Made by a program: the position numbers and the translations under genes. Below the pieces are notes generated by a model. The model searched no databases and had not been told where the DNA came from. It saw nothing but the letters and a program-made list of their open reading frames with translations. 46,422 nucleotides of DNA from Chiloscyllium plagiosum (taxonomy: Eukaryota): the NCBI RefSeq assembly GCF_004010195.1, contig NC_057749.1, positions 17,545,843 to 17,592,264 of the forward strand. Direction: 5' to 3'. Shown piece after piece: positions 1,229 through 44,611 of this stretch (the first letter of the stretch is position 1; each line of letters opens with the position of its first letter).

Positions 1229-1753
1229 AATAGGCTGGGACTATTTCCCTTGGAGCGTCGGAGGCTGAGAGGTGACCTTATAAAGGTTTATAAAATCATG
1301 AGGGACATGGATAGGATAAATAGACAAAGTCTTTTCCCCGGGGTGGGGGAGTCCAGAACTAGAGGGCATAGGTTTAGGGTGAGAGGGGAAAGGTTTAAAA
1401 GGGACTGAAGGTGCAACTTTTTCATGCAGAGGGTGGTGTGTGTAAGGAATAAGCTGCCAGAGGAAGTGGTGGAGGCTGGTACAATTACACCATTTAAAAG
1501 GCATCCGGATAGGTATATGAATAGGAAGGGTTTGGAGGGATATGGGTTGACAATGTGGTGCTGGAAAAGCACAGCCGACCAGGCAGCATCTGAGGAGCAG
1601 GAGAATCAACGTTTGAGCATAGACACTTCATCAGGAATGAGGCTAGATGGATATGGGCCAATCCCTGGCAAATGGGACTAGGTTAGGTTAGGATATCTTG
1701 TTGGCATGGACGAGTTGGACCCAAAGGGTCTGTTTCCATGCTGTATGACTCTA
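1229..1753 (+). mobile_element. CR1 LINE 3' end, interrupted by a Penelope-derived insert
   Basis: ORF2 C-terminus RLGLFPLERRRLRGDLIKVYKIM...RTRGHRF; 3' tail aagggtctgtttccatgctgtatgactcta. Confidence 0.9.
1547..1648 (-). mobile_element. Penelope-like pLTR fragment with decayed hammerhead motif
   Basis: Homologous to the 3' module at 27966-28060 (reverse strand); flanked by ggatatggg at 1538-1546 and 1649-1657. Confidence 0.75.
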
Positions 1754-1761
1754 ATACCAAC

Positions 1762-2349
1762 AAGTGACCTTATAGAGGTTTATAAAACCATGAGGGGCAT
1801 GGATAGGGTAAATAGACAAGGTATTTTCCCTGGGGTAGGGGAGTCCAGAACTAGAGGGCATAGGTTTAGGGTGAGACTGGAAAAATGTAGAAGGGACCTA
1901 AGGGGCAATGCTTTCATGCAGAGGGTGCTATGTGTATGGAATGAGCTGCCAGAGGAAGTGGTGGACAAGCAGGAGGCTGGAAGAATACAGCAAGCAAGGC
2001 AGCACCCTCAGAGTCCTAATGAAGGGTTATACCCAAAACATTGACTTCTCCACCTTCTGATTCTACCTGGCTTGCTGAGTTCTTCCAGTCTCTTGCTTGT
2101 CTACCTTGGATTCCAGCACCTGCAGTTTTTTGTCTCTAGCTAGAGAAAATGGTGGAGGCTGGTACAATTACAACATTTAAAAGGCATCTGGAGGGATATA
2201 GGAGTAGGAAGGGGTTTAGAGGGATATGGGCCAAGTGCTGGCAAATGGGAATAGATTAAGTTAGGATGTCTGGTCAGCATGGACAAGTTGGACTGAAGGG
2301 TCTGTTTCCATGCTGTACGTCTCTATGACTCTATAACACTATGACTCTA
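1762..2349 (+). mobile_element. CR1 LINE 3' end, interrupted by a fold-back Penelope insert
   Basis: DLIEVYKTMRGMDRVN...WNELPEEVV; tail ending in ctctatgactcta repeats. Confidence 0.9.
1966..2138 (+). mobile_element. Fold-back Penelope-derived mini-element
   Basis: 5' part (caagcaggaggctggaagaa...) is the reverse complement of 2060-2100; decayed core ctaatga-aggg..ccc-aaaac at about 2016-2040; degenerate 18-bp TSD 1948-1965 / 2139-2156. Confidence 0.75.
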
Positions 2350-2419
2350 ATTACAACTGCACTGCAGTGTGAGATGTGTAACCTCTTCCATTGATCGTGA
2401 ATTCTTACATTTACTGCTA

Positions 2420-4832
2420 TTGGAAGGATGTTGTGGAACCTCAAAGGGTTCAGAAAAGATTTTCAAGAATGTTGCCAGGGTTGGAGGGTTTGGAGGTATG
2501 GGGGAGAGGCTGGGGCTATTTTCCCTGGAATGTCGGACGCTGAGGGGTGACCCTTCTAACGGGAAACTAGAAGATTGGGAAAGCTTTAAAGGTCAACATA
2601 AATCCCCAAAAAGAGCTAGAAAGAAAAGTAAGATAGAACATGAGAAAAAACTAGCACAGAATGTAAAAGCAGATAGCAAAAGTTTCTATAAATATATAAA
2701 ACAAAAAAGAGTGGTTAATGTCAACATTGGTCCTTCAGAGGATGAGAAGGGGCAGTTAGTCATGGGATATGAGGAAATTGCCGAGGCATTGAACAAGTAC
2801 TTTGTATCGGTCTTCACAGTGGAGAACACAAATAACATGCCAGTAATTGACAAGGAGACAAAGGGAGGTGAGGACCTGGAAACAATCATTATTAAGGAAG
2901 AGGTAATATTGGCCAAGCTAATGGAGCTAAGATAGACAAGTCTCTTGGTCCTGATGGAATGCATCCCAGGGTACTAAAGAAATGGCAGGAGAAATAGCAA
3001 GTGGTAAATTTCCAAAATTCACTGGACTCTGGGCATGTTCCAGCAGACTGGAAAACAGCAAGTGTTTAAAAGGGGAAGTAGACAAAAGATGGGGAATTAT
3101 ATTCAGTTAGCTTAACCTTTGTAGCGGGGAAGATGCTAGAGTCTATTATCAAGGAAGAAATACCAAGGCACCTCGATAGAAATTGTCCCTTCGGGCAGAC
3201 GCAGCATGGGTTCATGGAGGGCAGGTCATGCTGAACAAATCTTCTGGAATTCTATGAAGACATTACAAGCACGGTGGGCAACAGGAACCCAGTGGATGTG
3301 GTGTACCTAGATTTCCAAAAGGCATTTGACAAGGTGCCGCACAAGAGGCTGCTGCATGAGATAAAGATGCACAGTGTTACGGGTAAAGTATTAGCAAGGA
3401 CAGAGGATTGGCTGACTAACAGGAAGAAAAGAGTGGAGATACATGAGTGCTATTCTGGCCAGCAATCAGTAACTAGTGGTGTGCCTCAGGGATCAGTGTT
3501 GGGACTGCAATTAGACACAGTTTATATGGATGATTTGGAGTTGGGGACCACATGTAGTGTGTCAAACTTCTGCAGATGATACAAAGATGAATGGCACAGC
3601 AAAGTGTGCAGAGGACCCAGAAACTTTGTAGAAAAACAAATACTTTGAGTGGGCAAAGGGTCTAGCAGATGGGATACAATGTTAATAAATGTGAAGTCAT
3701 TCATTTTGGTAGGAGTAACAGTAAAAAGGATTGTTGCTTGAATGGTAAAAAGTTGCAGCATGCTGCAATGCAGAGGGACCTGGGTGTCCTTGTGCATGAA
3801 TCTCAGAAGATTGGTCTGCAGGTACAACAGGTAATTAGGAAGGCAAATGGAATTTTGTCCTTCATTGCTAAATGGATGAAGTTTTAAAGCAGGGATATTA
3901 TGTTGCAGCTGCACAGGGTGTTGGTGAGGCCACATCTGGAGTACTGCATGCAGTTTTGGTCTCCTTACTTGAGAAAGGATTAGTGGCACTACAGGGGGTG
4001 CAGAGGAGGTTCACTGGGTTGATTCCGGAAATTGATGGGGTTGGCTTATGAGGAAAGACTGAATAGATAGGGATTATATTCATTGGAATTTTGAAGAATG
4101 AGGGAGGATATTATAGAAACATATAAAATATTGAAGCAAATAGCGAAGATAGAAGTAGAGAGAGGATCTTTCACTGAGAACACAGCCTCAAGATTAGAGG
4201 AAGCAGATTTAGGACTGAATTGAGAAGGAACATCTTCACCCAGAGGGTTTTGAATCTGTGGAGTTCCCTGCCCAGTGAAGTGGTTGAGGCTTCCTCAGTA
4301 AGTGTTTTTACAGCTAAGACAGATAACTGTAACAGAATTAGGGGACATGGTGAGAGTGTAGGTAAGTGGAGCTGAGACCCTGAAAAGCTCAGCCATGATC
4401 TTATTGAACAGTGGAGTAGGTTTGAGGGGCCAGACAGCACACTCCTGCTCCTAGTTCTTATGTTTTTACAGAGGTTTATAAAATCATGAGGGGCATGGAT
4501 AGGGTAAATAGCCAAAGTTGTTTCCTTGGGTTGGGAAGTCCATAACTAGAGGGCGTAAGTTTAGGGTGAGTGGGGAAAGATTTAAAAGGGACCTAAGGGA
4601 CAACTGTTTCACGCAGAGGATGGTACGTGTATGGAATAAGCTGCCAGAGGATGTGGTGGAGGCTGGTACAATTGCAACATTTAAAAGGCATTTGGATGGG
4701 TATATGAATAAGAAGGGTTTGGAGGGATATGGGCCAAGTGCTGGCAGGTGGGACTAGATTAAGTTTGGTTATCTGGTTGGCATGGATGAGTTGGACTGAA
4801 GGGTCTGTGTCAATGCTGTTCAACTCTATGAT
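2420..4832 (+). mobile_element. CR1 3' fragment (2420-2553 plus 4468-4832) split by a second CR1
   Basis: [15 protein letters not shown] stops near 2553 and the expected continuation (gaggtttataaaatcatg, EVYKIM) resumes at about 4470. Confidence 0.8.
2556..4465 (+). mobile_element. Nested 5'-truncated CR1 LINE (ORF2 RT region and 3' UTR), frameshifted
   Basis: KSFYKYIK, LNKYFVSVFT, VDVVYLDFQKAFDKVPH, SGVPQGSVLG, NVNKCEVIHFG, QRDLGVLV motifs; tail ctcctgctcctagttcttatgtt. Confidence 0.92.
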
Positions 4833-6200
4833 TATACTTTGACAGAGGGTATAAATACAGATCACGAGCCTCCTTCACAACCTGATGTCAAAAGGCGCTT
4901 TGCCCCCTTTGTATGGGACTAGTGAATCCTATACTCTGTGCTGCAGCTCGGGTAGCAATGGTAATAGATTGTTAGTAGAGCCAACTCTGATTGGTTCAGT
5001 GCTCAGGTACAATTATGGTGAAAGCACTGGAGAAAACTGATTGATTCAGATTGGATTTATTTTCCCTTTGATTCTCTCTCTTGCGCAGGCTGCTGAGTTC
5101 CTGCTGGGCACTGACTATCCATGTGTTCATCTCCTTTTCTAAGGGGACCTCTTTCAGTTTGAGGCTAGACAGTGGTGTTGATTACTCATTTGATCTCGAG
5201 GGATCATCCGTTTATTCCTGCTGATTACCCAGAGAGAAATCCGGTCCTCACTGAATACACATTGCAGTCGGAATCACTGATAGTGTAGAGAGTCAGAATG
5301 GGAACTGGATAGTGTGACCCTATCGTGATGAGGAGCAGGGATGATACACTTACATTTGTACAATCACAATTTCCTTTTATCAATCGGTACAATATTTCCC
5401 ACAGGTTGTGTCGTGCTCCCGTCATTAAACTAAACATATTTTAATCACCAGCCAGGGAAACTTGAACTTTCCAATACTTGTTTTGATAAGCTGATAACAT
5501 TACTGGGATATTTGCCATGAGCACAATGCTATAAACATGCTCCATCGAGCATTTAAAATGACAGTACACCATCATAAAGCTTCTGAATAGCCTTGAAATG
5601 GCTATGTGAACTCATGAATAATACAATAAATTCCACTCTTCACAAACAACAGCACATCCCAGTGAATAAAGAGCTCATTTTATCCGATCAAGGGCAAAAC
5701 TGTTTACAGAATTAGTTATTTCCAAGCCACAAGAGTCACACTTTTCCATGAGGATTGAGTGCTTCTCTCTGAACTGGGTTTGACAGGAATCATATATCGA
5801 TGTGCTCTAACCCAGAAAGGCAAATCCTGCTGATCTGGCTGTCTGATATTCCCATTTCACATCATTCCATTTGAACAGTAAGCTGGACAAATGGATAGCT
5901 CACACCTTTTGGAATCTACCTTAAAATAAACAGCAGAGAGTTCTGAATGTGCTGAAGTCAGCTTCATCAATGACTAACATGTAATTAAACCCAAGTTTCG
6001 CAGGTTACATCTGAACACATGGTCAGCTATACCCATGGAAGATCTTTCATTCTCTTCCAGTGCATATTATTCAGCTGCTTTCCTCAGAATTACTTTAGAT
6101 TTAGAGGAAAACTTATGAATATGTGTGTTTAAAAAAGCAAGAGGTTTTGTGCATATCATTGAAGAAAATGAGAGAGATGCATACATTTTGTAGCTATTAT

Positions 6201-6285: not shown

Positions 6286-6300
6286 ATTGTTCTGTGGGCT

Positions 6301-7077
6301 AAAGACAGAAAGTGCTGGAAATCACAATGGGTCAGGCAGCATCGGTGACGAGAAGGCAAACTAACGTTTCTAGTTGAGATGACTCTTCCTCAGTGTGGGC
6401 ATTCCTCACAGAGATATGGCAGTGCATCAAAGCAGACCTTGGCAGGACTTATACACTTAATGGTAAGGTCCTAGGGAGTGTTGCTGAACAAAGAGACCTT
6501 GGAGTGCAGGTTCATAGCTCCTTGAAAGTGGAGTCGCAGGTAGATAGGATAGTGAAGAAGGCGTTTGGGATGCTTTCCTTTATTGGTCAGAGTATTGAGT
6601 ACAGGCGTTGGGAGGTCATGTTGCGGCTGTATTGGACATTGGTTAGGCCACTGTTGGAATATTGCGTGCAATTATGGTCTCCTTCCTATCGGAAGATGTT
6701 GTGAAACTTGAAAGGGTTCAGAAAAGGTATGGAATGAGCTGCCAGAGGATGTGGTGGAGGCTGGTACAAATGCAGCATTTAAGAGGCATTTGGATGGGTA
6801 TATGAAAAGGAAGGGTTTGGAGGGATATGGGCTGGGCGCTGGCAGGTGGGACTAGAGTGGGTTGAGATATCTGGTCGGCATAGATGAGTTGGACTGAAGG
6901 GTCTGTTTCCATGCTGTACATCTGTATGACTCTATGACAAATCTGAACTCTGAAGCGTCGTCTAGACTTGAAACATTAGCTTGCTCTCTCTCCACGGATG
7001 CTGCCTGACCAGCTGTGATCTCCAGCATTTGTTATTTTCAGTACAGATTCCAGCAGCTGCAATAATGTGCTCCTACT
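6301..7077. mobile_element. Older fold-back Penelope-derived element split by a CR1 insertion
   Basis: 6301-6390 (tgctggaaatcac..gggtcaggcagcatc..ctaacgtttc) is the approximate reverse complement of 6945-7040 (gaaacattagc..gatgctgcctgacc..gtgatctccagca). Confidence 0.65.
6427..6937 (+). mobile_element. CR1 3' fragment with internal deletion
   Basis: GRTYTLNGKVLGSVAEQRDLGVQVH...LVRPLLEYCVQLWSP, then a jump at about 6727 to WNELPE and the CR1 tail. Confidence 0.9.
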
Positions 7078-7194: not shown

Positions 7195-7305
7195 CAGAAG
7201 TGGGTACTGCAGATGTTGGAGATTACAGTCAAGCTCAGAGTGGTGCTGGTGAAAGGCTTCCTGATGAAGGGCTTTCGCCCAAAACATCGATTTTCCTGCT
7301 GCTCA
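7195..7305. mobile_element. Penelope pLTR fold-back remnant with hammerhead motif
   Basis: ctgcagatgttgga..gtggtgctgg joined to CTGATGA(7261-7267)-agggctttcgccc-aaaacatcga. Confidence 0.7.
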
Positions 7306-7526
7306 ATCTGCAGCTGGCCAACATCCTCACTCCTGTTTCCCTTCAGTTATTCAGGATAACTGTCATAGTTACTGACACCAGTGAGACAGAGGGTGAGGGA
7401 GAGGACAGTGACAATAAAACATGTACTCCTTCTTCAGAACAAAGAAATCTTCAAATTTTAAAAATGAAGAAAGCACATTTGAGAGGGAGGAAGCCAGGTG
7501 AAGACAGGAAGACAGGTGAAGGTGAG

Positions 7527-7707
7527 GGAAACAGAAAACTGGAAAAACTCATCAGGTCTACAAAGGGAGAAACAGAGTTAATATTTTGAGTCAAATATGG
7601 TTCTTCTGAAGTTGTGATGAAGGGTCACTGGATTCAAAATGTTAACTGTTGCTTTCTCCACAGATGTGACTGGACCTGCTGAGTTTCTCCAACACCTTCA
7701 GATTGCA
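7527..7707. mobile_element. Decayed fold-back Penelope-derived element (stem II gggtc-actg-gaccc type)
   Basis: ggaaaaactcatcaggtc..agagttaatattttgagtc mirrored by gattcaaaatgttaactg..gacctgctgagtttctcc; decayed core tgatgaagggtcactggattcaaaa. Confidence 0.65.
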
Positions 7708-8882: not shown

Positions 8883-10606
8883 ATTGGCGGAGGGAGGAGG
8901 TGGGGTGGGGTGGGGGTAGGAGACTGAGCATTTTAATTCAAGAAGTATCAGGAATAAGGGTGATGAATTTAGGGCATGGATCAGTACTTGGAACTATGAT
9001 GTTGTGGCCATTATGGAGACTTGGATATCACAGGGGGAGGAATGGTTGTTGCATGTTCCAGAGTTTCAAAAGAAATAGGGGGTGAGGGTGGCATTGCTAA
9101 TCAGGGATAGTATCACAGCTACAGAAAGGGATGTCGTTGAAGAGGGTTTGTCTACAGAGTCGCTATGGGTGGAGAAACAGGAAAGGAGCAGTCACTTTAC
9201 TGGGAGTTCTCTACAGACCCCCCAATAGCAACAGAGACATGGAGGAGCAGAATAGGAGGCAGATTTTGAAAAGGTGCAGAAGTAACAGGGTTGTTGTCAT
9301 GGGTGACTTCAACTTCCCTAATATTGTTTGGAATCTCCTTAGTTCAAATATTTTGGATGGAGCAGATTTTGTCAGGTGTGTCCAGGAAGGATTCCTGGCT
9401 CAATATGTGGATAGGCCGACTAGAGGGGAGGCCATATTGGATTTGGTACTTGGCAACGACCATGCCAGATGTCAGATCTCTCAGTGGGAGAGCACTTCGG
9501 TGATACTGATCACAGCTTCCTGACCTTCACTGTACTCACAGAGAGGGATAGCAGCAGACTGTATGGAAAAGGATTTAATTGGGGGAAGGGGGAATTACAA
9601 TGCTATCCAGCAGGAACTGGAGTGACTAAATTGGGAACAGATGTTCTCGGGGAAATGCACGGCAGAAATGTGGCGTTTGTTTAGGGAGCACTTGCGGATA
9701 GTGCTGGACATTCCCGCTAAGGGAAGGAAGGGATGGTAGGGTGAAGGAACCTTGGGTGACAAGGGATATGGAACGTCTAGTCAAGAGAAAGAAGGAAGCT
9801 TACTTAAGGTTGAGGAAGCAAGGATCAGACAAGGCTTTAGAGGGTTACAAGGTAGCCAGGAAGAAACTGAAGAATGGACTTAGGAGAGCTAGAAGGGGGC
9901 ATGAAAAAGTTTTAGCGGGTAGGATTAAGGAAAACTCTAAGGCATTTTGCACATATGTGAGGAACAAGAGTTTGGCCAGAGTGAGGGTAGGGCCAATCAG
10001 GGATAGTGGAGGGAACTGGCGCCTGGAGTTGGAGGAGGTAGGGGAGATCATTAATGAATAATTTGCTTTAGTATTCACTACTGAGAGGGACTTTGATGTT
10101 TCTGAGGACAACATGAAACAGGCTGATATGCTAGAACTGGCTGATGTTACGATGGAGAATGTGCTGAAAATTTTGAAAAACTTAGGGATAGATAAGTCCC
10201 CTGAACCAGACTGGATATACCCAAGGTTACTACAGGAAACGAGGGAAGAGATTTCTGTGCCTTTAGCAATGATCTTTGTGTCCTCGCTGGAGTAGTGCCA
10301 GATGATTGGAGAGTGACAAATATTTTTCCTTTGATCAAGATAAGGAATAGGAATAAACCTGGAAATTTCAGACCAGTCAGTCTTACGTCTATGGTGGGTG
10401 AAGTATTGGAAGGGATTCTGAGAGACAGGACTTATGATTACTTGGAAAACCATAGTATCAAGATAAGGAATAGGAATAAACCTGGAAATTTCAGACCAGT
10501 CAGTCTTACGTCCTGTCTCTCAGGGATTCTGAGAGACAGGACTTATGATTACTTGGAAAACCATAGTTTGGTTAGAGATAATCAGCATGACTTTGTGAGG
10601 GGAAGG

Positions 10607-11087
10607 TAGAAACAATGACTGCAGATGCTGGAAACCCAGAGTCTAGATTAGAGGTGCTGGAAGAGCACAGCAGTTCGGGCAGCATCAGAGGAGCAGTAAA
10701 ATTGACGTTTCAGGCAAAAGCCCTTCATCAGGAATACAGGCAGAGAGCCTGAAGGGTGGAGAGATAAGCTAGGGGAGGGTGGGGGTGGGGAGAGAGTAGC
10801 ATATTCATCTTCCCTTCCCCCACCTCACCTCAGTTCCAAACTTCCAGCTCAGCACTGTCCCCATGACCTGTCCTACCTGCCTATCTTCTTTTCCACCTAT
10901 CCACTCCACCCTCCTCCATGACCTATCACCTTCATCCCCTCTCCCACTCACCTATTGTACTCTATACTACTTTCTCCCCACCCCCACCCTCCTCTCATTT
11001 ATCTCTCCACCCTTCAGGCTCTCTGCCTGTATTCCTGATGAAGGGCATTTGCCCAAAACGTTGATTTTACTGCTCCTCGGATGGTAC
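10607..11087. mobile_element. Fold-back Penelope-derived element inserted in CR1 ORF2
   Basis: 10680-10800 is the reverse complement of 10965-11083; core CTGATGA at 11035-11041; 16-bp TSD ctttgtgagggg(a/c)agg at 10591-10606 / 11088-11103. Confidence 0.88.
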
Positions 11088-12424
11088 CTTTGTGAGGGGC
11101 AGGTCATGCTGCACAAGCCTTCTTGAACTCTTTGAGGATGTGACAAAACACGTTGATGAACTTAGAGCAGTGGATGTGGTGTACATGGATATTTGCAAGG
11201 CATTTGATAAGGTTCCCCATGTTAGGATCATTCAGTAAGTAAGAACATGGAATACAGGGAAACCTGGCTGTCAGGATGTTTGACAGTGTGGAGGAACAGA
11301 GGGATCTTGGAGTCCACTTCCATAGATCCCTTAAAGTTGCCACCCAAGTTGATAGGGTTGTTAAGAAGGCGTATGGTGTGTTGGCTTTTATTAGCAGGGG
11401 GATTGAGTTTAAGAGCTGTGAAGTTATTCTGCAGCTCTATAGAGCCCTGGTTAGACCACACTTAGAATATTGCGTTCAGTTCTGGTCACCTCATTATAGG
11501 AAGGATGTGGAAGTTGTAGAGGGGGTGCAGAGGAGATTTCCCAGGATGCTGCCCAGACTGTCTTATGAAGAAAGATTAAGGGAGCTAGGGCTTTTCTCAT
11601 TGAAACAAAAAAAGGATGAGAAGTGACTTGATAGAGGTGTACATGATGATGAGAAGCATTGATAGAGTGGATAGCCAGAGACGTTTTCCCCAGGGCAGAA
11701 ATGGCTATTGTGAGGGGGCATAATTTTAAGGTGATTGGAGGAAGATTTAGGGGAGATGTCAGAGGGAGGTTCTTTACACAGAGAGTGATGAGTGTGTGGA
11801 ATGCACTGTCAGCAGTGGTAGTAGAGTCAGATACATTCAGGACATCTAAGTGACTCTTGGATAGGCACATGGTAGATAGTACAATGAAGGGTATGTAAGT
11901 TAGTCTGATCTTAGAGTAGGATAAAAGCCCAGCACAATATCGAGGGCTGAAGGGCCTGTATTGTACTGTTCTATGTTCTATGTTCCACACTATGCACACA
12001 GAGCCTGGCTTTGAACTGGGCAGTTGGTGGCTTCATTAAAACTGCAGCAAGGTAGACAGTGGCTAGGAAAGGGTTACGTTACTTTAGTGTCATTGGCTCC
12101 TGAATAGGCTAATGTGTTTATGAGAAGTGAGTACTTATTGCCTGCAGTAACACTGTACTGAGATCAGCAAAAGGGACACGTTAATGTAGTGGCTTTGACA
12201 GATAGCACTGTGTGCCCCGAGGATGAGGACTGTACAATATGATAGATTTGATTCAATAATTTCCCACAACTTCATCTCCCACACCATGCACTGGCTAGTA
12301 TCGTTTTACAAGACACTTCCCTTTCCAGACTTCAGATTTCTTATTGTAAATAACATGAAATGAAGTTTGCAGCAAATTCTTTCCTTTGGCAAATACAGCA
12401 AGAATGCATTGCTTGCTTACTCAT

Positions 12425-12500: not shown

Positions 12501-13321
12501 ATCTGGCTGTCTGTGATTAAACCCTCTTCTCATTTATGTCCATACTTCCATCTGACCCAACAGTGTGGATGGTGGCTGTGTGCACATCTGATTCACTCTC
12601 CCTTCGATCTCTCCATGGTCTAGCTAGTCCCTGTCCATGCTTTAATGGTAACCCCTGTTTATCTGTGAATTCCAAGACCATTTTCTATCATTTGGTCTGG
12701 TGAGTGCTGGTAGGATCAAAATTGCTTTGGAGTATGCCAGCAGATGAGCTAATGTTTTAGATGCTGCTACTTTTTCCAAGGTCTGGACAGGGGAACATTA
12801 ACTGACATGTCCTGAAAAGTAATGGACCAGAGAGCCAGCTTAATGGACCCATTATTTCCTCTGCTTCATTCCAGCACTGACTTAACTTCACAAATACTTA
12901 GTTAGCGATGAAGCACTTTGGCACATCCTGGGAACATGAAGAGCACTGGGTAAATGTACATTTTTTCTTTTTTTTATTGTTTCCAAGAAATAGTCACCAA
13001 AAGGACGCAAATGTGAAGGTGAAGTTGCCATAGTCCCAGAGGAGTATCAGGCCACTCTCTGACTAGAGAGCGAGGGATGACTGGAGGTGGTTTAAGCTGT
13101 GAGTCACCACCTCAGGGTGAGATTGGGAAGGAGAGTCCTTCATGGTAACCCCACATGGTGTGGGATGTGGGGAATCAGCCGCCTGGTGGTATTGTCACTC
13201 GGGCTGGTTTTAGAGTCTGAGGCAGATTCTCTGGGATCATAGGTTTGAATCCCACCGTGGCAGATGGTGAAATTTGAAATCAATAGAACTCTGCAGTTAA
13301 AAAGCTGGCCCAGTGATTGTC

Positions 13322-14180
13322 ATGATTTGAGATGCCGGTGTTGGACTGGGGTGTACAAAGTTAAAAATCACACAACACCAGGTTATATTCCAACAGGTTT
13401 ATTTGGAAGCACTGGCTTTTGGAGCGCTGCTCCTTCATCAGGTGGTTGTGGAGTATAAGATTGTAAGACACAGAGTTTATAGCAAAAGTTTGTGGGCGCC
13501 ACGGTGGCACAGTGGTTAGCACTGCTGTCTCACAGCGTCTGAGACCCGGGTTCAATTCCTGCCTCAGGCGACTGACTGTGTGGAGTTTGCACGTTCTCCC
13601 TGTGTCTGCGTGGGTTTGCTCCGGTTTCCTCCCACAGTCCAAAGATGTGCAGGTTAGGTGAATTGGCCATGCTAAATTGCCCGTAGTATTAGGTAAGGGG
13701 TAAATGTTGGGGCATGGGTGGGTGGTGGGTCGGTGTGGACTTGTTGGGCTGAAGGGCCTGTTTCCACGCTGTAATGTAATCTAATCTAATTTACAGTCTG
13801 ATGTAACTGAAATTATATATTGAAAAAGACCTGGATTGTTTGTTACGTCTCTCATCTTTTAGAGTGACCATGTCAGGTTCAAGTGTCCTCCCCCACCCCA
13901 CCACACACACCCACGTGCACACATACATATATAAGTTTATGGGGGTGAATCTGTTATGCAGAATTACATTTTACTTTGCTCAAAAACTGCATGAATCCAT
14001 GTAAGATTCTGTAAATCCATTTTTTTGATTAGAATCAGTCTGACCATTGTGGCACAGACAGTCTCACACAGGGAAGCTCACACCTTCAATACATTATCTG
14101 GGCCAAAATGACACCAATTGTTAAAATTCACTTGAGAATGTAACTTCAAAAAAGTTTTGGGATTTACATGTGAAAGAATC
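13322..14180 (-). mobile_element. Penelope-like element 3' region with pLTR and hammerhead motif (AGCU family)
   Basis: 13322-13445 is the reverse complement of 20210-20332; minus-strand CTGATGA-aggagcagcgctcc-aaaagcca; continues after the HE1 insert. Confidence 0.75.
13494..13790 (+). mobile_element. HE1-type V-SINE
   Basis: tRNA-like head (ggtggcacagtggttagc..gggttcaattcc), V-domain tgtgtggagtttgcacgttctccc, CR1-like tail, (taatc)n end. Confidence 0.93.
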
Positions 14181-14554: not shown

Positions 14555-14735
14555 AAAGAAACGAAGAACTGTGGATACTGGAGATCGAACCGAAAAAAAA
14601 ATTACTGGAGAAACTCAGCAGGTCAGGCAACATCTATGGGCAGAAAGCAGAGTTAATGTTTTGAGTGCAGCGACTCTTCTCCCCACAGATGCTGCCAGAC
14701 CTGCTGAGTTTCATCAGTAATTTCTGCTTTTGTTG
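14555..14735. mobile_element. Fold-back Penelope-derived element
   Basis: aaattactggagaaactcagcaggtcaggcaacatctatggg mirrored by cccacagatgctgccagacctgctgagtttcatcagtaattt; same family as 7527-7707. Confidence 0.75.
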
Positions 14736-17220: not shown

Positions 17221-17241
17221 CAGAAAACTCCTGAACTACCT

Positions 17242-17484
17242 AAGCAAAAGTGAGGACTGCAGATGCTGGAAACCAGAGTTTAGATCAGAGTGGTGCTGGA
17301 AAAGCACAGCAGGTCAGGCAGCATCCGAGGAGCAGGAAAATCGATGTTTCGGGCAAAAGGCCTTCATCAGAAATAGAGGCAGGGAGCCTCTCTGATGAAG
17401 GCCTTTTGCCCGAAACAGCAATTTTCCTGCTCCTCGGATGCTGCCTGACTTGCTGTGCTTTTCCAGCACCACACTGATCTAAAT
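17242..17484. mobile_element. Fold-back Penelope-derived mini-element with two opposed hammerhead motifs
   Basis: Arms about 17278-17371 / 17391-17483; cores at 17392-17415 (+) and 17370-17345 (-); 13-bp TSD tcctg(a/c)actacct at 17229-17241 / 17485-17497. Confidence 0.92.
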
Positions 17485-17499
17485 TCCTGCACTACCTGC

Positions 17500-20118: not shown

Positions 20119-20329
20119 AGTTAAAAATCACACAACACCAGGTTATCGTCCAACCGTTTATTTGGAAGCACAAACTTTCAGAACGCTGCTCCTTTATCAG
20201 GTGATTGATCACCTGATGAAGGAGCGTTGCTCCGAAAGCTAGTGCTTCTAAATAAACCTGTTGGACTATAACCTGGTGTTGTGTGATTTTTAACTTTGTA
20301 CACCCCAGTCCAACACTGGCGTCTCCAAG
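20119..20329. mobile_element. Fold-back Penelope-derived mini-element (AGCU family)
   Basis: Inverted arms 20119-20205 / 20208-20295 with a 2-nt loop; TSD tcagtgataac at 20108-20118 / 20330-20340. Confidence 0.92.
20210..20244 (+). ncRNA. Minimal hammerhead ribozyme motif
   Basis: CAC-CUGAUGA-A-GGAGC guu GCUCC-GAAA-GCUA-GUG: stem I CAC/GUG, stem II GGAGC/GCUCC, palindromic AGCU in place of stem III, predicted cleavage after CUA (20241). Confidence 0.8.
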
Positions 20330-20368
20330 TCAGTGATAACGGTTGCAGTGAGATATAGAAATGGTCAA

Positions 20369-26243: not shown

Positions 26244-26427
26244 TGTTAAAAATCACACAACATCACATTATAGTCCATCACATTATCGGGCGGTTGTCAA
26301 CCACCTGGTGAAGGAGCAGTGCTCCGAAAGCTAGTGTGCTTCCAATTAAACCTGTTGGACTACAACCTGGGTGTTGTGTGATTTTTGACTTTGTACATCC
26401 CAGTTCAACATCGGCATCTCCAAATCA
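26244..26427. mobile_element. Fold-back Penelope-derived mini-element (AGCU family) in the L1 5' UTR
   Basis: Short inverted arm 26245-26278; core ctggtga-aggagcagtgctcc-gaaagcta at 26305-26333; 10-bp TSD tttatattat at 26234-26243 / 26428-26437. Confidence 0.88.
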
Positions 26428-26535
26428 TTTATATTATCGATTTTTCTCCTGGGGTGGTTAGCGAGGAGGGGCGTAAAGGCCCACCTTACCAGGGGGTATG
26501 GCACAGTGCCCAGCACAGCAGACCACTCAGACTGT

Positions 26536-27117: not shown

Positions 27118-27228
27118 ATTATATTATCTACTTGTCATTCTGCTGGCAAAGATCTATGGTCATGCACAGCAAGATCTCTCTGACCCTCTGTATTTCCTAG
27201 GGTCTGAGTATTCATACGTACAACACAG

Positions 27229-27879
27229 ATGGCCTCCTTCTTCAAGGACCGCAATTTCCCCCCCGACGTGGTCGACGGTGCCCTCCACCGCATCTCCTCC
27301 ACTTCCCGCTCCTCCGCCCTTGAGCCCCGCCCCTCCAACCGCCACCAGGACAGAACCCCACTGGTCCTCACCTACCACCCCACCAATCTCCATGTACAGC
27401 GCATCATCCGCCATCACTTCCGCCACCTCCAAACAGACCCCAGCACCAAGGATATATTTCCCTCCCCTCCCCTATCAGCTGTCCGTAGAGACCACTCCCT
27501 CCGCGACTCCCTTGTCAGATCCACACCCCCCACCGACCCAACCTCCACTCCCGGCACCTTCCCCTGCAACCGCAGGAGGTGCAAGACTTGCGCCCACACC
27601 TCCCCCCTCACCTCCCTCCAAGGCCCCAAAGGAAACTTCCATATCCGCCACAAATTCACCTGCACCTCCACACACATCATCTACTGCATCCTCTGCACCC
27701 GATGTGGCCTCCCCTATACTGGGGAGACAGGCCGGCTACTAGGGGAGCGTTTCAGAGAACACCTCTGGGACACCCGGACCAACCAACCCAACCACAACCA
27801 ACTCAACATTTCAATTCCCCCTCCCACTCCACCAAGGATATGCAGGTCTTTGGACCCCTCCATCGCACCCTCACCTTGA
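27229..27879 (+). pseudogene. PLE ORF C-terminal part: RT thumb/linker, Cys-rich linker, GIY-YIG endonuclease
   Basis: PLVLTYHP, GTFPCNRRRCKTC, FTCTSTHIIYCILCTRCGLPYTGETGRLLGERFREH; frameshift near 27795. Confidence 0.9.
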
Positions 27880-27967
27880 CCTCTTTCCACCTATCACATT
27901 TCCAACGCCCCTCCTCCAAGTCCCTCCTCCCTACCTTTTATCTTCTCCTGCTGAACACTCTCAGCTC

Positions 27968-28003
27968 ATTCCTGAAGAAGGGCCTGTGCCCGAAACGTCA
28001 AAT
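27968..28003 (+). ncRNA. Minimal hammerhead ribozyme motif in the PLE pLTR
   Basis: AUUC-CUGAAGA(27972-27978)-A-GGGC cugu GCCC-GAAA-CGUC-aaau; ACGU palindrome; predicted cleavage after GUC (27999). Confidence 0.78.
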
Positions 28004-28491
28004 CTCCTGTTCCCTGGATGCTGCCTGACCTGCTGTGCTGTTCCAGCAATAAAGTTTCAACTTTGATCTCCAGCATCTGCAGACCTCACTTTCTCCTCTG
28101 AGTATTCATCATATACTCTCTTGCCCTGTTAACACCTGCCGAATGCATCAACTCAGGCTCTATGTGTTACCATTTGTCCAATTGACCAGCCTGTCACCAG
28201 CATCCGCTACGTGTTCTGTGAACTTACTGACCACCCCTCCTATATTCCTGCCTAGATAAAATGTGCTCTAAAACAGCAATTTCTGGATCAATATAAATAC
28301 TGGCTCAGTCAGCAGGGGGCTGTGCTGCCCTATGTTAGCAGAGAGTGCAGCTCAGTTGCAGACAGACTTGGGGAATTTATAAGCTTGAAAAAAACTTGTC
28401 TCTGAACCCCTCTTTGTCATTCCTTAGTGAAAGGCAGGCAGAGGCTGGAACTGATGTCATCAGTTTGTCACTGTGTGTGTTACGGTGTATT

Positions 28492-29446: not shown

Positions 29447-30138
29447 ATGGTGGGGCTCGTATCTCAAGTAGTGCAGCGAGAGTCTGAGGGAGTGGATAGA
29501 GCTTCCTAATTCCGATATACTAAATGAGATGGTGAGTGTGTCCTGGCTGTGTTGTTACCCTCCTTTAAGGTACAGTTTTCATGAGCACTTACACTGACTG
29601 CAATGAGTCTGATTCTTTGCTGTTCAGTGTCTCAATGGGAGTCTAGAGCAAGGAAATAATAATTCTGACCATGACTGGAAATATATCGCTCTATTGGACC
29701 ATCCCACCAGTTACACAGCCCAGTACAAACTCTGACAATTCTTCACACTGCTCTACATAAAATACCTGGGTTCGAATTCCTGCTCCCCCACTTCATGGTG
29801 AAAATGTTCATTGTTAGAATGTGTGAAGGTGCTGACTGCAACTCATCCTGTCATGAATATTTCACAATTTGCGGTATCTAGGTCTTATTTGCTTGTGAGC
29901 TCAGAACATGTGGGATTTGCTGCCTGAAAACAATGCTTTAATATCTCTGTGCTATGGCAGCCTCTGGTAAAGGCAATGAATCATTCCTCCTACAGTCTCT
30001 GTACCTCGACGTGGGAAGGGAAATTGGGGTAGATGTCAGGAAGTAAATTGGGGTAAATATCAGGAAGAGCTTGGCTGTGATGTAAGTGTATGGACAGTGA
30101 CTATGTGTGAGAGGCAACAATGTCTTTGTGAGGTACAG

Positions 30139-30249
30139 AGTTAAAAATCACACAACACCAGGTTATAGTCCAACAGGTTTAATTGGAAGCTTTCGGAGCG
30201 TCACTCATTCATCAGGTGAGCGACACTCCGAAAGCTAGTGTGCTTCCAG
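30139..30249. mobile_element. Fold-back Penelope-derived fragment (AGCU family)
   Basis: gttaaaaatcacacaacaccagg..gctttcggagcgtcactcattcatcaggtg followed by inverted gagcgacactccgaaagctagtg. Confidence 0.8.
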
Positions 30250-30264
30250 GTAAAATATATTTTG

Positions 30265-31978: not shown

Positions 31979-32057
31979 AGGAGAAAGTGAGGTCTGCAGA
32001 TGCTGGAGATCAGAGCTGGAAATGTGTTGCTGGAAAAGCGCAGCAGGTCAGGCAGCA
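31979..32057 (-). mobile_element. Penelope pLTR terminal fragment
   Basis: Reverse complement of 28020-28096 (ggagaaagtgaggtctgcagatgctggagatca...). Confidence 0.8.
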
Positions 32058-32109
32058 CTGTTCCTCCTCCCTGTGCCCCTCCCAATGTGGAGTCTAAGAC
32101 TGATTTTCA

Positions 32110-33460: not shown

Positions 33461-34950
33461 TCTCTCTGAATTCATTCTTTCCCAGGAGGTCAAAACTGTC
33501 CCAGTCAAGCATCACAATCTCGAACCATCAACAGTGATGATGCCCTGCATCATAAGCTTTGGCCCTGTTTAGTTTCTTGGTGTTGCTAGGATAGCTGTTA
33601 GTGCAACTACACTTGGTCAAACATAATGGCGAAGAGCTTAGACAGCTGGTACGGGTACATGTGCTCCCCCTGAGAATTAGAGTGAGGATCTCTCAACACA
33701 GCCTGAAGTAACCAGTTGTAGCGAGGAACAACCATTTAATACATGCTCTTACCAATATAGGCAGCAGTACAATGGCTTCTTAATGTAAATAACATGACAA
33801 CATGGCTTCTCGGCTGCAAATTAAAATGCATAAAATGGCTTTTAATCCTGCTAAGTTTGAACCAACAAGATTAACAGACAATGCCTCCTTTACAGTGTGG
33901 AAATAACTAGACTAGATAAGACATTACTAACCATCCTAACTTGCAAATGCAGGTGCAGAGACAAGGTTCGCGAGATAGAAGTACTTGGATGTTGGAAAAC
34001 GAGTTTGGTTCCCAGGAAATATCATTGGGCTAAGTTGCTGTCAATAAAGTCATTTCATTAAAATTGATTGTTAGTTGTTTGAATGTGCTCTGTGATTATG
34101 GCCTGTACTTACCTCAAAAAAAGTATAAAAATGTCTTTGTCTTAAACCATGTGTGCAGTTTCTCTGAGGAACACGGAAGTTTTTAACCCCTGTGTTACTG
34201 GAGATTGAATGAAGTGTGAAATCTTATGGAACCAGACCGAAATGCTAGACCGGGGGTGGGGGTGGGTGGGGGTTCCAGTTCTCCCAGAGGACGACTCTCT
34301 GTCTCCATCTACAGACTGTGCATTACATCAGTAAAATGGGTGGAGCCAATGTATCATGAACATTAACTCCTTCAAAACCAGTGGGTTATCCAACAGTCAT
34401 GTGCAGACGAAAGCTTCCAGGCACACCAAGGGTTAGGATGTTCGGTGAAACAGCCAGTGCAGTGACCATAGAAATATGTCTCAGGGAGGGAGATGCAGCC
34501 CGGGTCAGGATTGCAGGTGTAACTCACCACAGCCTGGTATATTAAATGGAATAAAAATGAACATCTCTTGTGCTGATTGCTAATGAGCGTGTTTAGTTGT
34601 TCCTGAGTGCAGACTGAGAGAGTGGGTGTCCTGTGATGATAACGTAAGGCTCGGCCTCCTATAGTCAGCTGAGAGCTTTCTCGTTTTCCCTTTACCTTTA
34701 ACGTTGAGATGGTCCTCACTAGACAGGCTATCTGCTGGAATTCTCAGTCCTATTATGTTCACAGAAAAACATGGCTGTGAATTATTGTGAATTAAAAAAG
34801 CAACTAAATGTGTAGCACTGGAAAGTGAGAATGAAAAAAACTGATACTTTGCTTTTTGTGCTAATAAATCAACTCGAACAGGAAAGTATAAGTCCCAGGC
34901 TCTGTGCTGTTACATGATTTCAACTGGGAGATAAATTGAGTGAAAATTGA

Positions 34951-35045
34951 CGTTGAAACTTTATTGCTGGAACAGCACAGCAGGTCAGGCAGCATCCAGG
35001 GAACAGGAGATTCGACGTTTCGGGCACAGGCCCTTCTTCAGGAAC
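34951..35045 (-). mobile_element. Penelope pLTR fragment with intact hammerhead motif
   Basis: Nearly identical reverse complement of 27969-28062; minus strand UUC-CUGAAGA-A-GGGC cugu GCCC-GAAA-CGUC-GAA. Confidence 0.88.
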
Positions 35046-35159: not shown

Positions 35160-35336
35160 GTGGAGATGTCAGTGTCGGACTGGGGTGGACAAGGTCAGAA
35201 TCACACCACCCCAGGTTCTAGTCCGACAGGTTTATTTGAAACCACAAGGTGAACCTGATGAAGGAGCAGCGCTCCGAAAGCTTGTGATTTCACATTAGCC
35301 TGTTGGACTACAACCTGGTGTGGTGTGACTTCTGAT
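35160..35336. mobile_element. Fold-back Penelope-derived mini-element (AGCU family variant)
   Basis: Arms about 35194-35248 / 35281-35336; core CTGATGA(35255-35261)-aggagcagcgctcc-GAAA-gctt. Confidence 0.85.
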
Positions 35337-39985: not shown

Positions 39986-40249
39986 GTCTCCAGCCCTCTG
40001 TAGAATTGAACACACTTCAATCTGTATGCCTCTCATTCTTCTAAACTCCAGAGATTATAGGCCCATTCAACTCAATCTGTCCATTAGACTGTATTCCCAG
40101 GAGTCAATTTATAGCATGTTTTCCTTCCTCTGTATCTCTCTCCTGCTCTGTCTGTATTTAATTGACACCTTTTATTCAGGAGTATGAAGGGAGACAATGT
40201 GAACTATGCCACATGATTTCAAAAGGGATCAGGATCAGAGTTGGTGAAG

Positions 40250-41810: not shown

Positions 41811-41899
41811 TCTGGCCACTATCTCATTTGCTTCTCTCTCCTATTATAATATTAAGGAATCTGAAGAGAATTCCTCACAAAGTCTGTTACTCCAATCAC

Positions 41900-42125: not shown

Positions 42126-42159
42126 TTCTTTTATTAAACTAAGGAATTATATTTACATT

Positions 42160-42956
42160 AAGGACCAGAGGGTAACAAAGGGTAGAATAGGGCTCCTCAA
42201 AGATCAACTGGGAGAGAGTGAGGACTGCAGATGCTGGAGATCAGAGTCGAGGATGTGGTGCTGGAAAAGCACAGTCAGTCAGGCAGCATTCGAAGAGCCG
42301 GAGAATCGACGTTTCGGGCATAAGCTCTTCATCAGGAATGAGGCTCGTGTGAGACCTCATGATGAAGTGCTTATGCTCGAAACATCAAGTCTCCTGCTCC
42401 TTAATGCTGCCTGAATGACTGTGCTTTTCCAGCACCACACTCTCGCCCCCTCAAAGATCAGCAAGGCAGCTTTTATGTGAAGCTGCAGGAGATGTGGGAG
42501 ATACTAAACGAGTATTTTGCATCAATGTTTACTGCAGAGAAGGACATGGAAAGTATAGAATGTGTGGAAATAGATGGTGACATCTTGAAAAATGTCCATA
42601 TTACAGAGGAGGAAGTGCTGGATGTCTTGAAACATATAAAAGTGGATAAATCCCCAGGACCTGATCAGGTGTACCCTAGAACTCTGTGGGAAGCCAGGGA
42701 AGTGATTGCTGGGCCCCTTACTGAGATATTTGTATCCTCGATAGTCACAGGTGAGGTGCCGGAAGACAGGAAGTTGGCTCATGTGGTGCCACTGTTTAAG
42801 GAAGGTGGTAAGGACAAGCCAGGGAACTAGAGACCATTGAGCCTGACCTCGGTGGTGGGCAAGTTGTTGGAGGGAATCCTGAGGGACAGGATGTACATGT
42901 ATTTGGAAAGGCAAGGACTGATTCGGGATAGTCAACGTGGCTTTGTGCGTGGGAAA
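42160..42956 (+). mobile_element. CR1 ORF2 internal fragment
   Basis: RIGLLKDQ..ILNEYFASMFT..KSPGPDQVYPRTLWE..VVPLFKEGGKDKPGN. Confidence 0.9.
42209..42446. mobile_element. Fold-back Penelope-derived mini-element in CR1
   Basis: Arms about 42248-42333 / 42360-42445; TSD cctcaaagatca at 42195-42206 / 42449-42460. Confidence 0.9.
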
Positions 42957-43254: not shown

Positions 43255-43339
43255 ACTAGAATGCGTTTTGAAAGATCTGAAGCCTGCAAATATTGGTATC
43301 TCGAGTCCAGTGCTGTTGTGTCACCATAGTCTTGATTAG

Positions 43340-43395
43340 ATTAGAGTGGTGATGGAAAAGCACAGCAGTTCACTGCTCCTCGGATGCTGCCTGAC
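43340..43395. mobile_element. Fold-back Penelope-derived fragment cut by a gap
   Basis: gagtggtgatggaaaagcacagcagttca joined to opposite-orientation ctgctcctcggatgctgcctgac. Confidence 0.7.
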
Positions 43396-43895
43396 NNNNN
43401 NNNNNNNNNNNNNNNNNNNNNNNNNNNNNNNNNNNNNNNNNNNNNNNNNNNNNNNNNNNNNNNNNNNNNNNNNNNNNNNNNNNNNNNNNNNNNNNNNNNN
43501 NNNNNNNNNNNNNNNNNNNNNNNNNNNNNNNNNNNNNNNNNNNNNNNNNNNNNNNNNNNNNNNNNNNNNNNNNNNNNNNNNNNNNNNNNNNNNNNNNNNN
43601 NNNNNNNNNNNNNNNNNNNNNNNNNNNNNNNNNNNNNNNNNNNNNNNNNNNNNNNNNNNNNNNNNNNNNNNNNNNNNNNNNNNNNNNNNNNNNNNNNNNN
43701 NNNNNNNNNNNNNNNNNNNNNNNNNNNNNNNNNNNNNNNNNNNNNNNNNNNNNNNNNNNNNNNNNNNNNNNNNNNNNNNNNNNNNNNNNNNNNNNNNNNN
43801 NNNNNNNNNNNNNNNNNNNNNNNNNNNNNNNNNNNNNNNNNNNNNNNNNNNNNNNNNNNNNNNNNNNNNNNNNNNNNNNNNNNNNNNNNNNNNNN
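43396..43895. other. Assembly gap (500 N)
   Basis: Run of N. Confidence 1.
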
Positions 43896-44112
43896 AACAT
43901 CGAGGAGGCTGAATTCAATAGCGCCCACAGTTAGGCACAGGGACTTTGATGCACACTGACCCTGCATCCATTCAAAGGAAGGCACACTGAATACTGCTGC
44001 CTGCTGGCTGTAATTATAGTGACAGGCAGCTGCTGGGGAGGAATCTAAATTATACCTGAGGCTAGTACCACTTCAGGCACTGACACCATTTGAAGACAGA
44101 AAGCAACCCTTT

Positions 44113-44431
44113 GGGCGGCACGGTGGCACAGTGGTTAGCACTGCTGCCTCACAGCGCCAGAGACCCGGGTTCAATTCCCGCCTCAGGCGACTGACTGTGT
44201 GGAGTTTGCACGTTCTCCCCGTGTCTGCGTGGGTTTCCTCCGGGTGCTCCGGTTTCCTCCCACAGTCACAAAGATGTGCAGGGTCAGGTGAATTGGCCAA
44301 ACTAAATTGCCCGTAGTGTTAGGTAAGGGATAAATGTAGGGCTATGGGTGGGTTTCGCTTCGGCGGGTCGGTGTGGACTTGTTGGGCCGAAGGGCCTGTT
44401 TCCACACTGTAATGTAATCTAATCTAATCTA
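44113..44431 (+). mobile_element. Young HE1-type V-SINE
   Basis: CpG-rich head with A and B boxes, V-domain, (taatc)n tail; TSD aaccctt at 44105-44111 / 44432-44438. Confidence 0.95.
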
Positions 44432-44533
44432 AACCCTTAAAGATTCTGGCTACACATCAAACTGCACAATGCTCTCAGTTCTCAGGGTTCATGCCTTTGA
44501 CCTTGTTGCAGGAGGTGGATCAGGCCAGATATA

Positions 44534-44611
44534 AATCACACAACACCAGGTTATAGTCCAACAGGTTTAATTGGAAGCACACTAGCTTTCGGAGCGACGC
44601 TCCTTCATCAG
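44534..44611 (-). mobile_element. Penelope pLTR fragment (AGCU family) with intact hammerhead core
   Basis: Minus strand CUGAUGA-A-GGAGC guc GCUCC-GAAA-GCUA-GUG; the fragment ends exactly at the C of CUGAUGA. Confidence 0.85.

Follow-up and report, generated by a model that had tools for sequence, protein, structure and literature searches.

Head-to-head fold-backs of Penelope-like element ends in the genome of Chiloscyllium plagiosum

A 46,422-nucleotide stretch of the Chiloscyllium plagiosum genome (contig NC_057749.1, positions 17,545,843 to 17,592,264 of the forward strand, part of a 3.56-Gb assembly; hereafter the window) carries 20 short modules derived from Penelope-like elements (PLEs), many of which consist of a terminal arm joined to an inverted copy of itself, and the question raised by this locus is how such fold-backs come into being. 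An earlier note, made from the sequence of the window, had offered two explanations, a stereotyped abortive insertion and a self-propagating, retrozyme-like hairpin. The data favour the first: a fold-back is very probably a pair of arms joined head-to-head and made de novo in one insertion, with no master hairpin.

Identity of the modules and their hammerhead motifs

Natural arms taken from the window served as references, and Blast comparison with them placed 19 of the 20 starts listed in the earlier note in families labelled A (with a coding relative, A2), B and C, the labels being those of this analysis. The remaining start, at 7527, is related to the module at 14555 (76-82% identity over 75 nt), and both are fold-backs. 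All 20 starts proved to be short PLE pieces, belonging to at least four families, and an additional C-like arm at 6900-7076 was missing from the list. Fold-backs or inverted pairs are found at 13 starts (1966, 7195, 7527, 10607, 14555, 17242, 20119, 22533, 26244, 30139, 35160, 42209 and 43340), in agreement with the description of a complete module plus an inverted copy at many sites, and the other seven are single arms (1547, 6301, 13322, 27216, 31979, 34951 and 44534).

The link to PLEs comes from longer copies, which run into an open reading frame (ORF) for a reverse transcriptase (RT) and a GIY-YIG nuclease. In the window, positions 27217-27879 encode the end of such an ORF, with a zinc-knuckle-like CX4C..C..C stretch and a GIY..YxGE motif (Pfam GIY-YIG, E 0.018); a hammerhead follows about 90 nt past the ORF and is itself followed by the 3' end, the whole module (27217-28097) lying within a 13-bp target-site duplication (TSD). 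A first look at the genome with this ORF tail returned 138,949 candidates. One genomic copy (L116:583-3261:-) keeps an 893-aa open frame, 94% identical to the ORF tail of the window, with an RVT_1 match above the Pfam cut-off (E 6.4e-8) and a hammerhead about 160 nt past the stop codon, again ahead of the 3' end; an apurinic/apyrimidinic (AP) endonuclease was not found in this frame by Pfam. Long family A copies in the unselected sample described below likewise have the end of a PLE ORF upstream of the arm (70-86% amino-acid identity). Taken jointly with the de novo origin of the fold-backs, it is quite likely on these sequence matches that the modules are 3'-terminal pieces, or pseudo-long terminal repeats (pseudo-LTRs), of several canonical, endonuclease-bearing PLE families, with the RT placed by domain match. 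One point weighs against this assignment, in that the GIY-YIG match of L116 (E 3.5e-4, 21.2 bits) is below the Pfam cut-off of 22.6 bits. A PDB sequence search with the PLE ORF gave no match, and the sole match in a Pfam scan of nine window ORFs was an unrelated RVT_1 at 31980-32522.

Two other candidates were set aside. The 1212-aa frame of L115, considered as a full-length element, is an artefact of a masked N run, and L119, considered as an AP-endonuclease-bearing PLE, was read as including an adjoining piece of a long interspersed nuclear element (LINE), since the 893-aa frame of L116 has no such domain. The AP-endonuclease ORF of L119 (L119:1207-2160, plus strand; Exo_endo_phos, E 4e-19) overlaps the start of the PLE frame by 70 nt in a different reading frame, and L119 may be a chimeric element rather than a PLE next to a LINE piece. 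A separate feature of L116:583-3261:- is that the N-terminal ~190 aa of its stop-to-stop frame, upstream of the RT domain, hold 4-5 tandem copies of a ~37-aa unit.

Minimal PLE hammerheads have a CUGANGA core, an extra nucleotide before helix II, a G10.1-C11.1 pair and palindromic bases at 15.2-16.2; they are without a stable helix III and are thought to be active as dimers (PMC4209133). The pattern CTGANGA..GAAA occurs at 15 sites in the window, 11 of them within the PLE arms of 10 modules; the claim that most modules retain a hammerhead core stands as to the presence of minimal hammerheads but not as to their frequency, since the core is intact in 10 of the 20, or half. The family A core reads CTGATGA-A-GGGC-TTTT-GCCC-GAAAC-GTC and that of family B CTGATGA-A-GGAGC-GTC-GCTCC-GAAAG-CTA, while A2 has CTGAAGA and a CTGT loop, and an intact family C core is found in one window copy. 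Core statistics were drawn from 83 distinct core-bearing segments of the window and the sampled loci. Helix II has at least 4 bp in 67 of these (shuffled mean 4.7, maximum 11), and 82 have the extra A between CUGANGA and helix II. The four bases 3' of GAAA are GCUA in 27 segments, completing the palindrome AGCU with the A before them, and CGUC in 26, completing ACGU. The helix II stems change by paired substitutions (GGGC/GCCC in family A, GGAGC/GCUCC in family B and one GGGUC/GACCU variant), and the loops vary freely. Judged by such counts, the segments are real motifs of minimal type-I PLE hammerheads. A search of the window against Rfam gave no match at the gathering score and no hammerhead among 25 matches at E<=10, which we attribute to the minimal forms being without helix III, so that the ribozyme call rests on motif and structure counts. 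The Rfam matches obtained were sub-threshold and microRNA-like, a result of the hairpins, the best being to microRNA families on those at 22601-22718 and 17353-17409.

Minimum free energies of two fold-back RNAs were -174.2 kcal/mol (z -27) and -126.9 kcal/mol (z -19.6). As modelled, the partner arm would lock the hammerhead of a transcript into a duplex of about 90 bp, and such a read-through duplex would be a plausible Dicer substrate. A further observation concerns family B arm position 22, where the G of GAAA is an A in the longer arm only (4 versus 0 loci: L162, L163, L170 and L177); at this CpG site, the change may reflect chance or strand-biased decay.

Copy number, target sites and outer ends

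Genome-wide fractions derive from samples, by pattern counts and fetched regions. A family A mid-arm 20-mer has 34,903 exact matches and a family B mid-arm 22-mer 46,974, and fold-back centres with both cores exact and a spacer of at most 30 nt occur at 1,561 loci for family A and 2,207 for family B; each of the four reversed controls gave 0. The anchor samples, comprising the first 60 family A and first 40 family B loci of contig 1 without selection, contained 13 fold-backs in family A, next to 34 simple copies that break off within ~130 nt of the anchor and 13 that extend further; in family B there were 20 single arms and 16 tight fold-backs, as well as 3 pairs inverted about spacers of 137-190 nt and 1 ambiguous locus. 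Fold-backs are consequently a large minority of family A loci (13/60) and about half of those of family B (19/40), and the earlier description of the hairpin-plus-ribozyme form as the dominant product was overstated. These shares are themselves open to a bias that weighs against our reading, as exact 20-22-mer anchors pick out recent copies preferentially and give a fold-back with both arms intact two chances of being sampled. The window was also said to be densely populated: its 20 modules are real, but its anchor count (1 for family A and 3 for family B) exceeds the 0.46 and 0.61 predicted from the genome-wide mean by no more than a few-fold.

Several observations indicate that each fold-back entered the genome as a unit. 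Among the first 100 matches listed for each anchor, the close pairs are all in (-,+) order, diverging from a head-to-head centre (12/12 for family A, 18/18 for family B). A test for TSDs was made with the first 40 family A fold-back centres, 39 of which were resolved, and 31 of the 39 had a flank-match score of at least 10 as compared with 2 of 746 mismatched-flank controls. In the window, TSDs of 9-18 bp with no target sequence in common bound 11 of the 20 modules, where at least nine had been reported, and the proposal that PLEs insert with inverted 5' segments agrees with inverted pairs being bounded in this way. The arms of one locus are on average 91% identical (median 94%), as against 82% between loci, and among 13 family B loci with the same junction there are private loop variants and, at one locus, a private 2-nt deletion in both arms. 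That a fold-back could instead be two independent insertions or a later rearrangement, placed back to back by chance or by self-targeting, has in its favour the reported recognition of PLE sequence by PLE nucleases (cited in PMC11167929). We regard this as highly improbable, because the TSDs flank the pair and not each arm, the arms share variants private to the locus, and the order of all 30 close pairs is head-to-head. At one locus (L156/L157, G000:C1:3864310-3865970), the tandem duplication of a family B fold-back, with a period of ~155 nt, shows that fold-backs can seed local arrays.

Nor are the fold-backs clonal. Their junction strings vary between loci, both in the 7 top Blast matches and in 50 family A and 50 family B loci, and the 13 family B loci with one common junction fall in different subfamilies, with no consistent arm-specific differences.

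At their outer ends, the arms obey a simple rule. An arm begins ~8 nt before the hammerhead and stops at either of two 3' ends that are ~38 nt apart (reference positions ~189 and ~227 in family A, ~160-170 and ~198-204 in family B), and is accordingly without or with a tail. Tails are present on 31 of 47 single arms in family A and ~10 of 19 in family B, and yet fold-backs nearly always carry exactly one: 39/39 of the family A centres, 12/13 and 20/22 fold-backs in the family A and B anchor samples, 19/19 of the family B loci with asymmetric junctions, and 9/10 assessable fold-backs of the window. If arm ends were independent, the binomial P of this excess would be 5e-17 (A) and 6e-5 (B). A few loci depart from the pattern and so count against it, namely L004, one of the best Blast matches, which has two tails, L145, L157a and the window module at 30139. 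Tail-less arms have outer ends that cluster at a defined position, show neither 5' truncation nor source flanks, and often share microhomology with the TSD. A tail of 30-40 bp at one end is a known feature of PLEs (PMC8557442; PMC3846280), and an anole PLE has two adjacent internal RT start sites (PMC11167929); the two arm ends ~38 nt apart correspond to this tail and match those two start sites.

An alternative is that the modules only look like PLE ends and are in fact miniature inverted-repeat transposable elements (MITEs) or foldback DNA transposons, which would likewise be small, with long inverted arms between flanking duplications. We give this explanation almost no credence. A MITE has symmetrical ends and a fixed TSD, whereas the ends here are unequal, with the ~38-nt tail on one, and the TSD varies from 9 to 18 bp; moreover, long copies continue into the PLE ORF, and single arms are as common as pairs.

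Inner ends, junctions and a proposed route

The inner ends of arms cluster near the hammerhead. Among truncated single arms of family B, 7/8 start within 21 nt of the CUGAUGA box (P 1e-4), and both inner ends are within this distance in 14/22 family B fold-backs; in family A, ends within 17 nt of the box are found in 10/34 single arms (P 0.01) and 6/13 fold-backs. The commonest family B inner end is an A at -8, ~30 nt downstream of a TATA box (TATAAAT at -38..-32) present in 6/10 long family B copies, and short arms are without the TATA-containing upstream region. From the clustering at about -8 and the TATA spacing, we infer that arms are run-off copies made to the 5' end of a transcript, which would start ~8 nt before the hammerhead and could be either the element's own mRNA, with a 5'-proximal RT start site, or a short transcript of the 3' pseudo-LTR. 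Because they do not have the TATA region, such arms would be unable to transcribe themselves and are dead on arrival.

RNA reads came from one raw poly(A) single-cell library, which is unsuited to the mapping of 5' ends. They pile up only over PLE modules, on both strands, and 95% continue into other flanks, so the signal is that of the families as a whole and not of this locus. Counting against a transcript start at -8, reads cross this point into upstream sequence, and no hot spot of beginnings or ends was reported there. As a separate observation, poly(A) reads leave the genomic sequence at window positions 20271 and 26362-26365 and go on as runs of A absent from the genome (178, 226 and 213 reads). 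This site, at about +58 of family B sense arms, precedes both RT start sites and comes immediately after a motif resembling AUUAAA/AAUAAA; it may be a polyadenylation site, either one of the pseudo-LTR or an exapted one, with an unusually short spacing to the hexamer.

The junctions between arms are the most telling part of the structure. Of 182 family B loci in which both arms reach at least -7, the first 50 were tabulated. In 18 of them, nucleotide -8 occurs once, at the apex; 15 have -8 on both arms around a single extra C:G apex, 3 have the extra C:G on both arms around a single A:T apex, and 1 has -9 on both arms with a C:G apex, so that 37/50 are palindromes with a single-nucleotide apex. 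The rest comprise 3 even palindromes and 10 other forms, with the plain even -8/-8 junction absent (0/50). Cap copying would fit the identity of the extra apex nucleotide, which is C:G in 15/15 cases. Junction palindromes, along with a proposal of self-priming, are already on record for PLEs (PMC3846280).

Two results weigh against a general reading of these junctions. Perfect palindromes among 50 family A junctions are mixed, 6 even and 3-4 odd, and the single-apex rule is therefore restricted to family B. Likewise, a search for a cap-derived G at -9 found G in 78/100 of non-C bases, but mostly as the complement of the partner arm, with ~19/100 beside unrelated flank, and this candidate signature was rejected.

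With the junctions in hand, the possibility that the hairpins are a self-propagating non-autonomous family, retrozyme-like but inverted, transcribed and retrotransposed by PLE enzymes, can be weighed. The thousands of exact fold-back centres speak for it, as do recurrent junctions (one form in 18/50 loci) and the matching of whole 217-nt fold-backs to at least 40 loci at 88-95% identity. Most junctions are private, however, and those that recur have the form that run-off at a fixed end would produce; they fall in different subfamilies, and the tail is on either arm. Among 20 family B loci with asymmetric junctions, which include the 13 same-junction loci, it belongs to the longer inner arm 11 times and to the shorter one 9 times; the family A split is 13 and 6 (19 loci). 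The defined outer end of tail-less arms and the arms' want of a promoter region are further difficulties, and a duplex of -174 kcal/mol would be predicted to block both ribozyme and RT. We consider such a family very unlikely. It had been laid down beforehand that private junctions and modules matching PLE ends would speak against a mobilised hairpin, and this is what was found: the junctions are mostly private and the modules match PLE ends.

How, then, would a fold-back with one tail be made de novo? In the route that we put forward, target-primed reverse transcription would begin at the tail-site RT start, and the complementary DNA (cDNA) would run off at the 5' end of the RNA, which is probably capped and, in family B, lies ~30 nt downstream of the TATA box. 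The enzyme would then turn round and copy its own product, capping the broken chromosome end with a hairpin. Opening of the hairpin at its tip would yield a single arm. Nicking of one strand at the tail boundary would instead allow the hairpin to unfold and be copied into an inverted pair with exactly one tail, and the strand that is nicked would set the tail side, one strand leaving the tail on the first-made arm and the other on the second. This scheme of turning round and opening accounts for the one-tail rule, the 11:9 and 13:6 splits, the clustering of tail-less ends and the microhomology found there. Its details are offered tentatively, as somewhat more apt to be wrong than right. Opening at the tail boundary would be the work of the element's own nuclease; PLE nucleases are reported to recognise PLE sequence in the tail-boundary region (cited in PMC11167929), and 'EN-mediated resolution', with the tail at one end, has been suggested in general terms (PMC8557442). 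A simpler snap-back, in which tail-primed cDNA folds and the loop is kept, was rejected, as the longer inner arm is tail-less in 6/19 family A and 9/20 family B loci.

The main rival, unlikely but to be taken seriously, is twin priming, in which the two nicked target strands would prime cDNAs at the tail and tail-less sites on element RNA, the two then being joined head-to-head. The anole PLE protein cleaves and extends both DNA strands in vitro and uses two neighbouring start sites (PMC11167929), priming from both of these on one RNA would give exactly one tail per fold-back, microhomology with the TSD is frequent at tail-less arm ends, and the window module at 7195 has the non-overlapping layout of a classical twin-primed inversion. 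The junctions are harder to reconcile with this scheme, because cDNAs that end independently should often give the even -8/-8 form, of which family B has none, whereas a single strand turning round gives the odd forms that predominate there (18 with a single -8 apex, 15 with -8/C:G/-8). If the tail-primed enzyme were to displace the other cDNA, the longer inner arm would always be tailed, which is contrary to the observed 11:9 and 13:6.

A bolder extension of the turn-around scheme, possible but doubtful, is that fold-backs are a frozen form of an obligatory step in PLE integration, in which run-off at the cap, hairpin capping and a GIY-YIG nick in either strand would explain, for all PLEs, the long-puzzling inversion of pseudo-LTRs and the restriction of tails to one side. 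In the literature, the insertion cycle of PLEs is still called undefined, and the minimal products amount to a large natural library of junctions for the study of its mechanism. Any model has to accommodate a single tail per fold-back, an apex of one nucleotide, and a tail side that does not depend on junction asymmetry. If the inner ends mark the cap site, the hammerhead would be at the extreme 5' end of a PLE transcript, which bears on the purpose of the ribozyme. There is also a practical consequence for annotation, since tens of thousands of perfect hairpins of ~200 bp will be miscalled as MITEs or microRNA precursors, a risk shown by the weak microRNA matches at 22601-22718, and should be masked as PLE ends.

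The window modules and comparison with known systems

The modules of the window illustrate most of these forms, with fold-backs and inverted pairs given without strand. Among family A fold-backs, that at 17241..17486 has both cores intact (17346-17370 on the minus strand, 17392-17416 on the plus strand), a tail on the left arm only and a 13-bp TSD, and that at 42209..42450 has a minus-strand core at 42311-42335, again a left-arm tail only, and a 12-bp TSD. The junction at 22534..22750 is within the CUGAUGA box, which cuts both arms so that neither core is complete; it too has a left-arm tail only, with an 11-bp TSD (2 mismatches). At 43337..43395, the junction is well downstream of the hammerhead and the module continues into masked N (the masked runs are 38177-38630 and 43396-43895), so that it is readable only in part. 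Family B fold-backs are found at 20119..20339 (core 20213-20238, plus strand; right-arm tail only; 11-bp TSD), 26245..26433 (left arm short and tail-less, right arm with tail; 10-bp TSD), 35161..35331 (core 35255-35280, plus strand; left-arm tail only; ~12-bp TSD with an indel) and 30133..30254, where the right arm is truncated, the core is at 30190-30215 (minus strand), and a full tail and clear TSD are absent.

Older or less regular pairs include a diverged fold-back at 1966..2141, with a self inverted repeat of 63% over 134 nt, a mutated core, an 18-bp TSD with 3 mismatches (15/18), a left antisense arm that stops at the tail-less site and the tail on its right sense arm. A C-like fold-back at 14555..14730 (self inverted repeat 74% over 129 nt) has a decayed relative at 7527..7700 that has lost its hammerhead core. 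The parts of the inverted pair at 7195..7306 do not overlap, an antisense 3' end with tail being followed by a sense hammerhead segment within an 11-bp TSD (1 mismatch). The pair at 10604..11089 has long arms separated by a 159-nt spacer, a core at 10707-10731 (minus strand) and an 11-bp TSD; its antisense arm (10604-10830) carries the tail and its sense arm (10963-11089) stops inside the element.

The single arms, all on the minus strand apart from the 5'-truncated A2 element, comprise a tail-less A-like arm at 1546..1641, whose 5' end is ~8 nt upstream of a decayed hammerhead (9-bp TSD); a family C arm at 6296..6420 with a CTGAGGA..GAAAC core at 6366-6393; a tailed family B arm at 13317..13490 that extends ~50 nt beyond the hammerhead on the upstream side, taking in a TATAAA motif; an A2 arm at 34941..35044 (core 35017-35041); a 79-nt A2 3' end with tail at 31979..32057, which adjoins an unrelated LINE-like RT-coding stretch; and a tail-less family B arm at 44521..44611 that begins exactly at CUGAUGA (core 44586-44611). 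The A2 element itself (27217..28097, plus strand) has its hammerhead at 27972-27996 and a tailed 3' end.

Other repeats share the window. The RT-coding stretch at 31980-32522 (plus strand; RVT_1, E 7e-8) has no kinship to the PLE ORF by tblastn and is probably a LINE fragment. An abundant family with LINE-like or short interspersed nuclear element (SINE)-like 3' ends occurs at 1244-2338, 4474-4841, 6671-6939, 33068-33463 and 39656-39993, and the PLE arms at 1547 and 1966 sit inside copies of it, their TSDs being sequence of the repeat. A 70-nt tandem repeat of ~5 units lies directly 3' of a family B fold-back (20363-20712), with a mean RNA depth of 97 versus 8 by strand, and a satellite-like array of 29-32-nt period with internal inverted segments occupies 45171-46178.

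Canonical endonuclease-bearing (EN+) PLEs have an ORF with RT and GIY-YIG domains, strong 5' truncation, a truncated copy joined head-to-head in inverted orientation, junction palindromes, a 30-40-bp tail at one end and variable TSDs (PMC3846280; PMC8557442), and all of these features recur here. What differs is that the present modules are without the coding body, that both copies stop just upstream of the hammerhead, and that the resulting hairpins of 170-250 bp are present in tens of thousands. The present analysis puts numbers on the one-tail rule and the junctions; the available passages of those papers contain no such counts. The hammerheads share the conserved CUGANGA...GAAA...UH core and, with those described in PLE pseudo-LTRs (PMC4209133), the extra nucleotide, the G10.1-C11.1 pair, the palindromic bases and the want of a stable helix III, and differ in having no Rfam model match and in that, to judge from the arms, the ribozyme of a fold-back would be paired to its own complement.

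Metazoan non-LTR retrozymes are likewise short, non-coding hammerhead repeats, akin to PLE pseudo-LTRs and presumably dependent on PLE enzymes, and their head-to-tail tandem units give rise to circular RNAs (PMC7229834; 10.64898/2026.07.22.740005). The modules described here are instead dispersed single arms or inverted pairs; only a few direct, head-to-tail pairs were seen, and no close anchor pair was of the head-to-tail, hammerhead-bounded kind that defines a retrozyme. A text search of the available portions of PMC7229834 and 10.64898/2026.07.22.740005 found no passage on inverted or hairpin forms. In the anole PLE 'PAc', two RT start sites ~30-40 nt apart define the tail, as here, and the hammerhead is ~100 nt upstream of them (PMC11167929); fold-back products are not reported for PAc, and its hammerhead is at the start of the ORF, whereas the hammerhead here is also ~8 nt from the presumed RNA 5' end. 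In the literature found to join Penelope with twin priming, the terms occur only in passing, and a separate search on Penelope among shark transposable elements brought up nothing about such structures.

Inversions of L1 that arise by twin priming place inverted 5' segments within one pair of TSDs, but these segments do not overlap, unlike the arms here, which duplicate one stretch. The terminal resolution of parvoviruses in rolling-hairpin replication involves a nick beside the hairpin end followed by unfolding and copying, and the likeness to the proposed opening of PLE hairpins is one of mechanism only. The literature already describes PLEs with hammerheads in their pseudo-LTRs, inverted pseudo-LTRs, palindromes at the junctions and tails on one side, and what is added here is the scale that their minimal form reaches in this genome, together with the quantitative rules that it follows.

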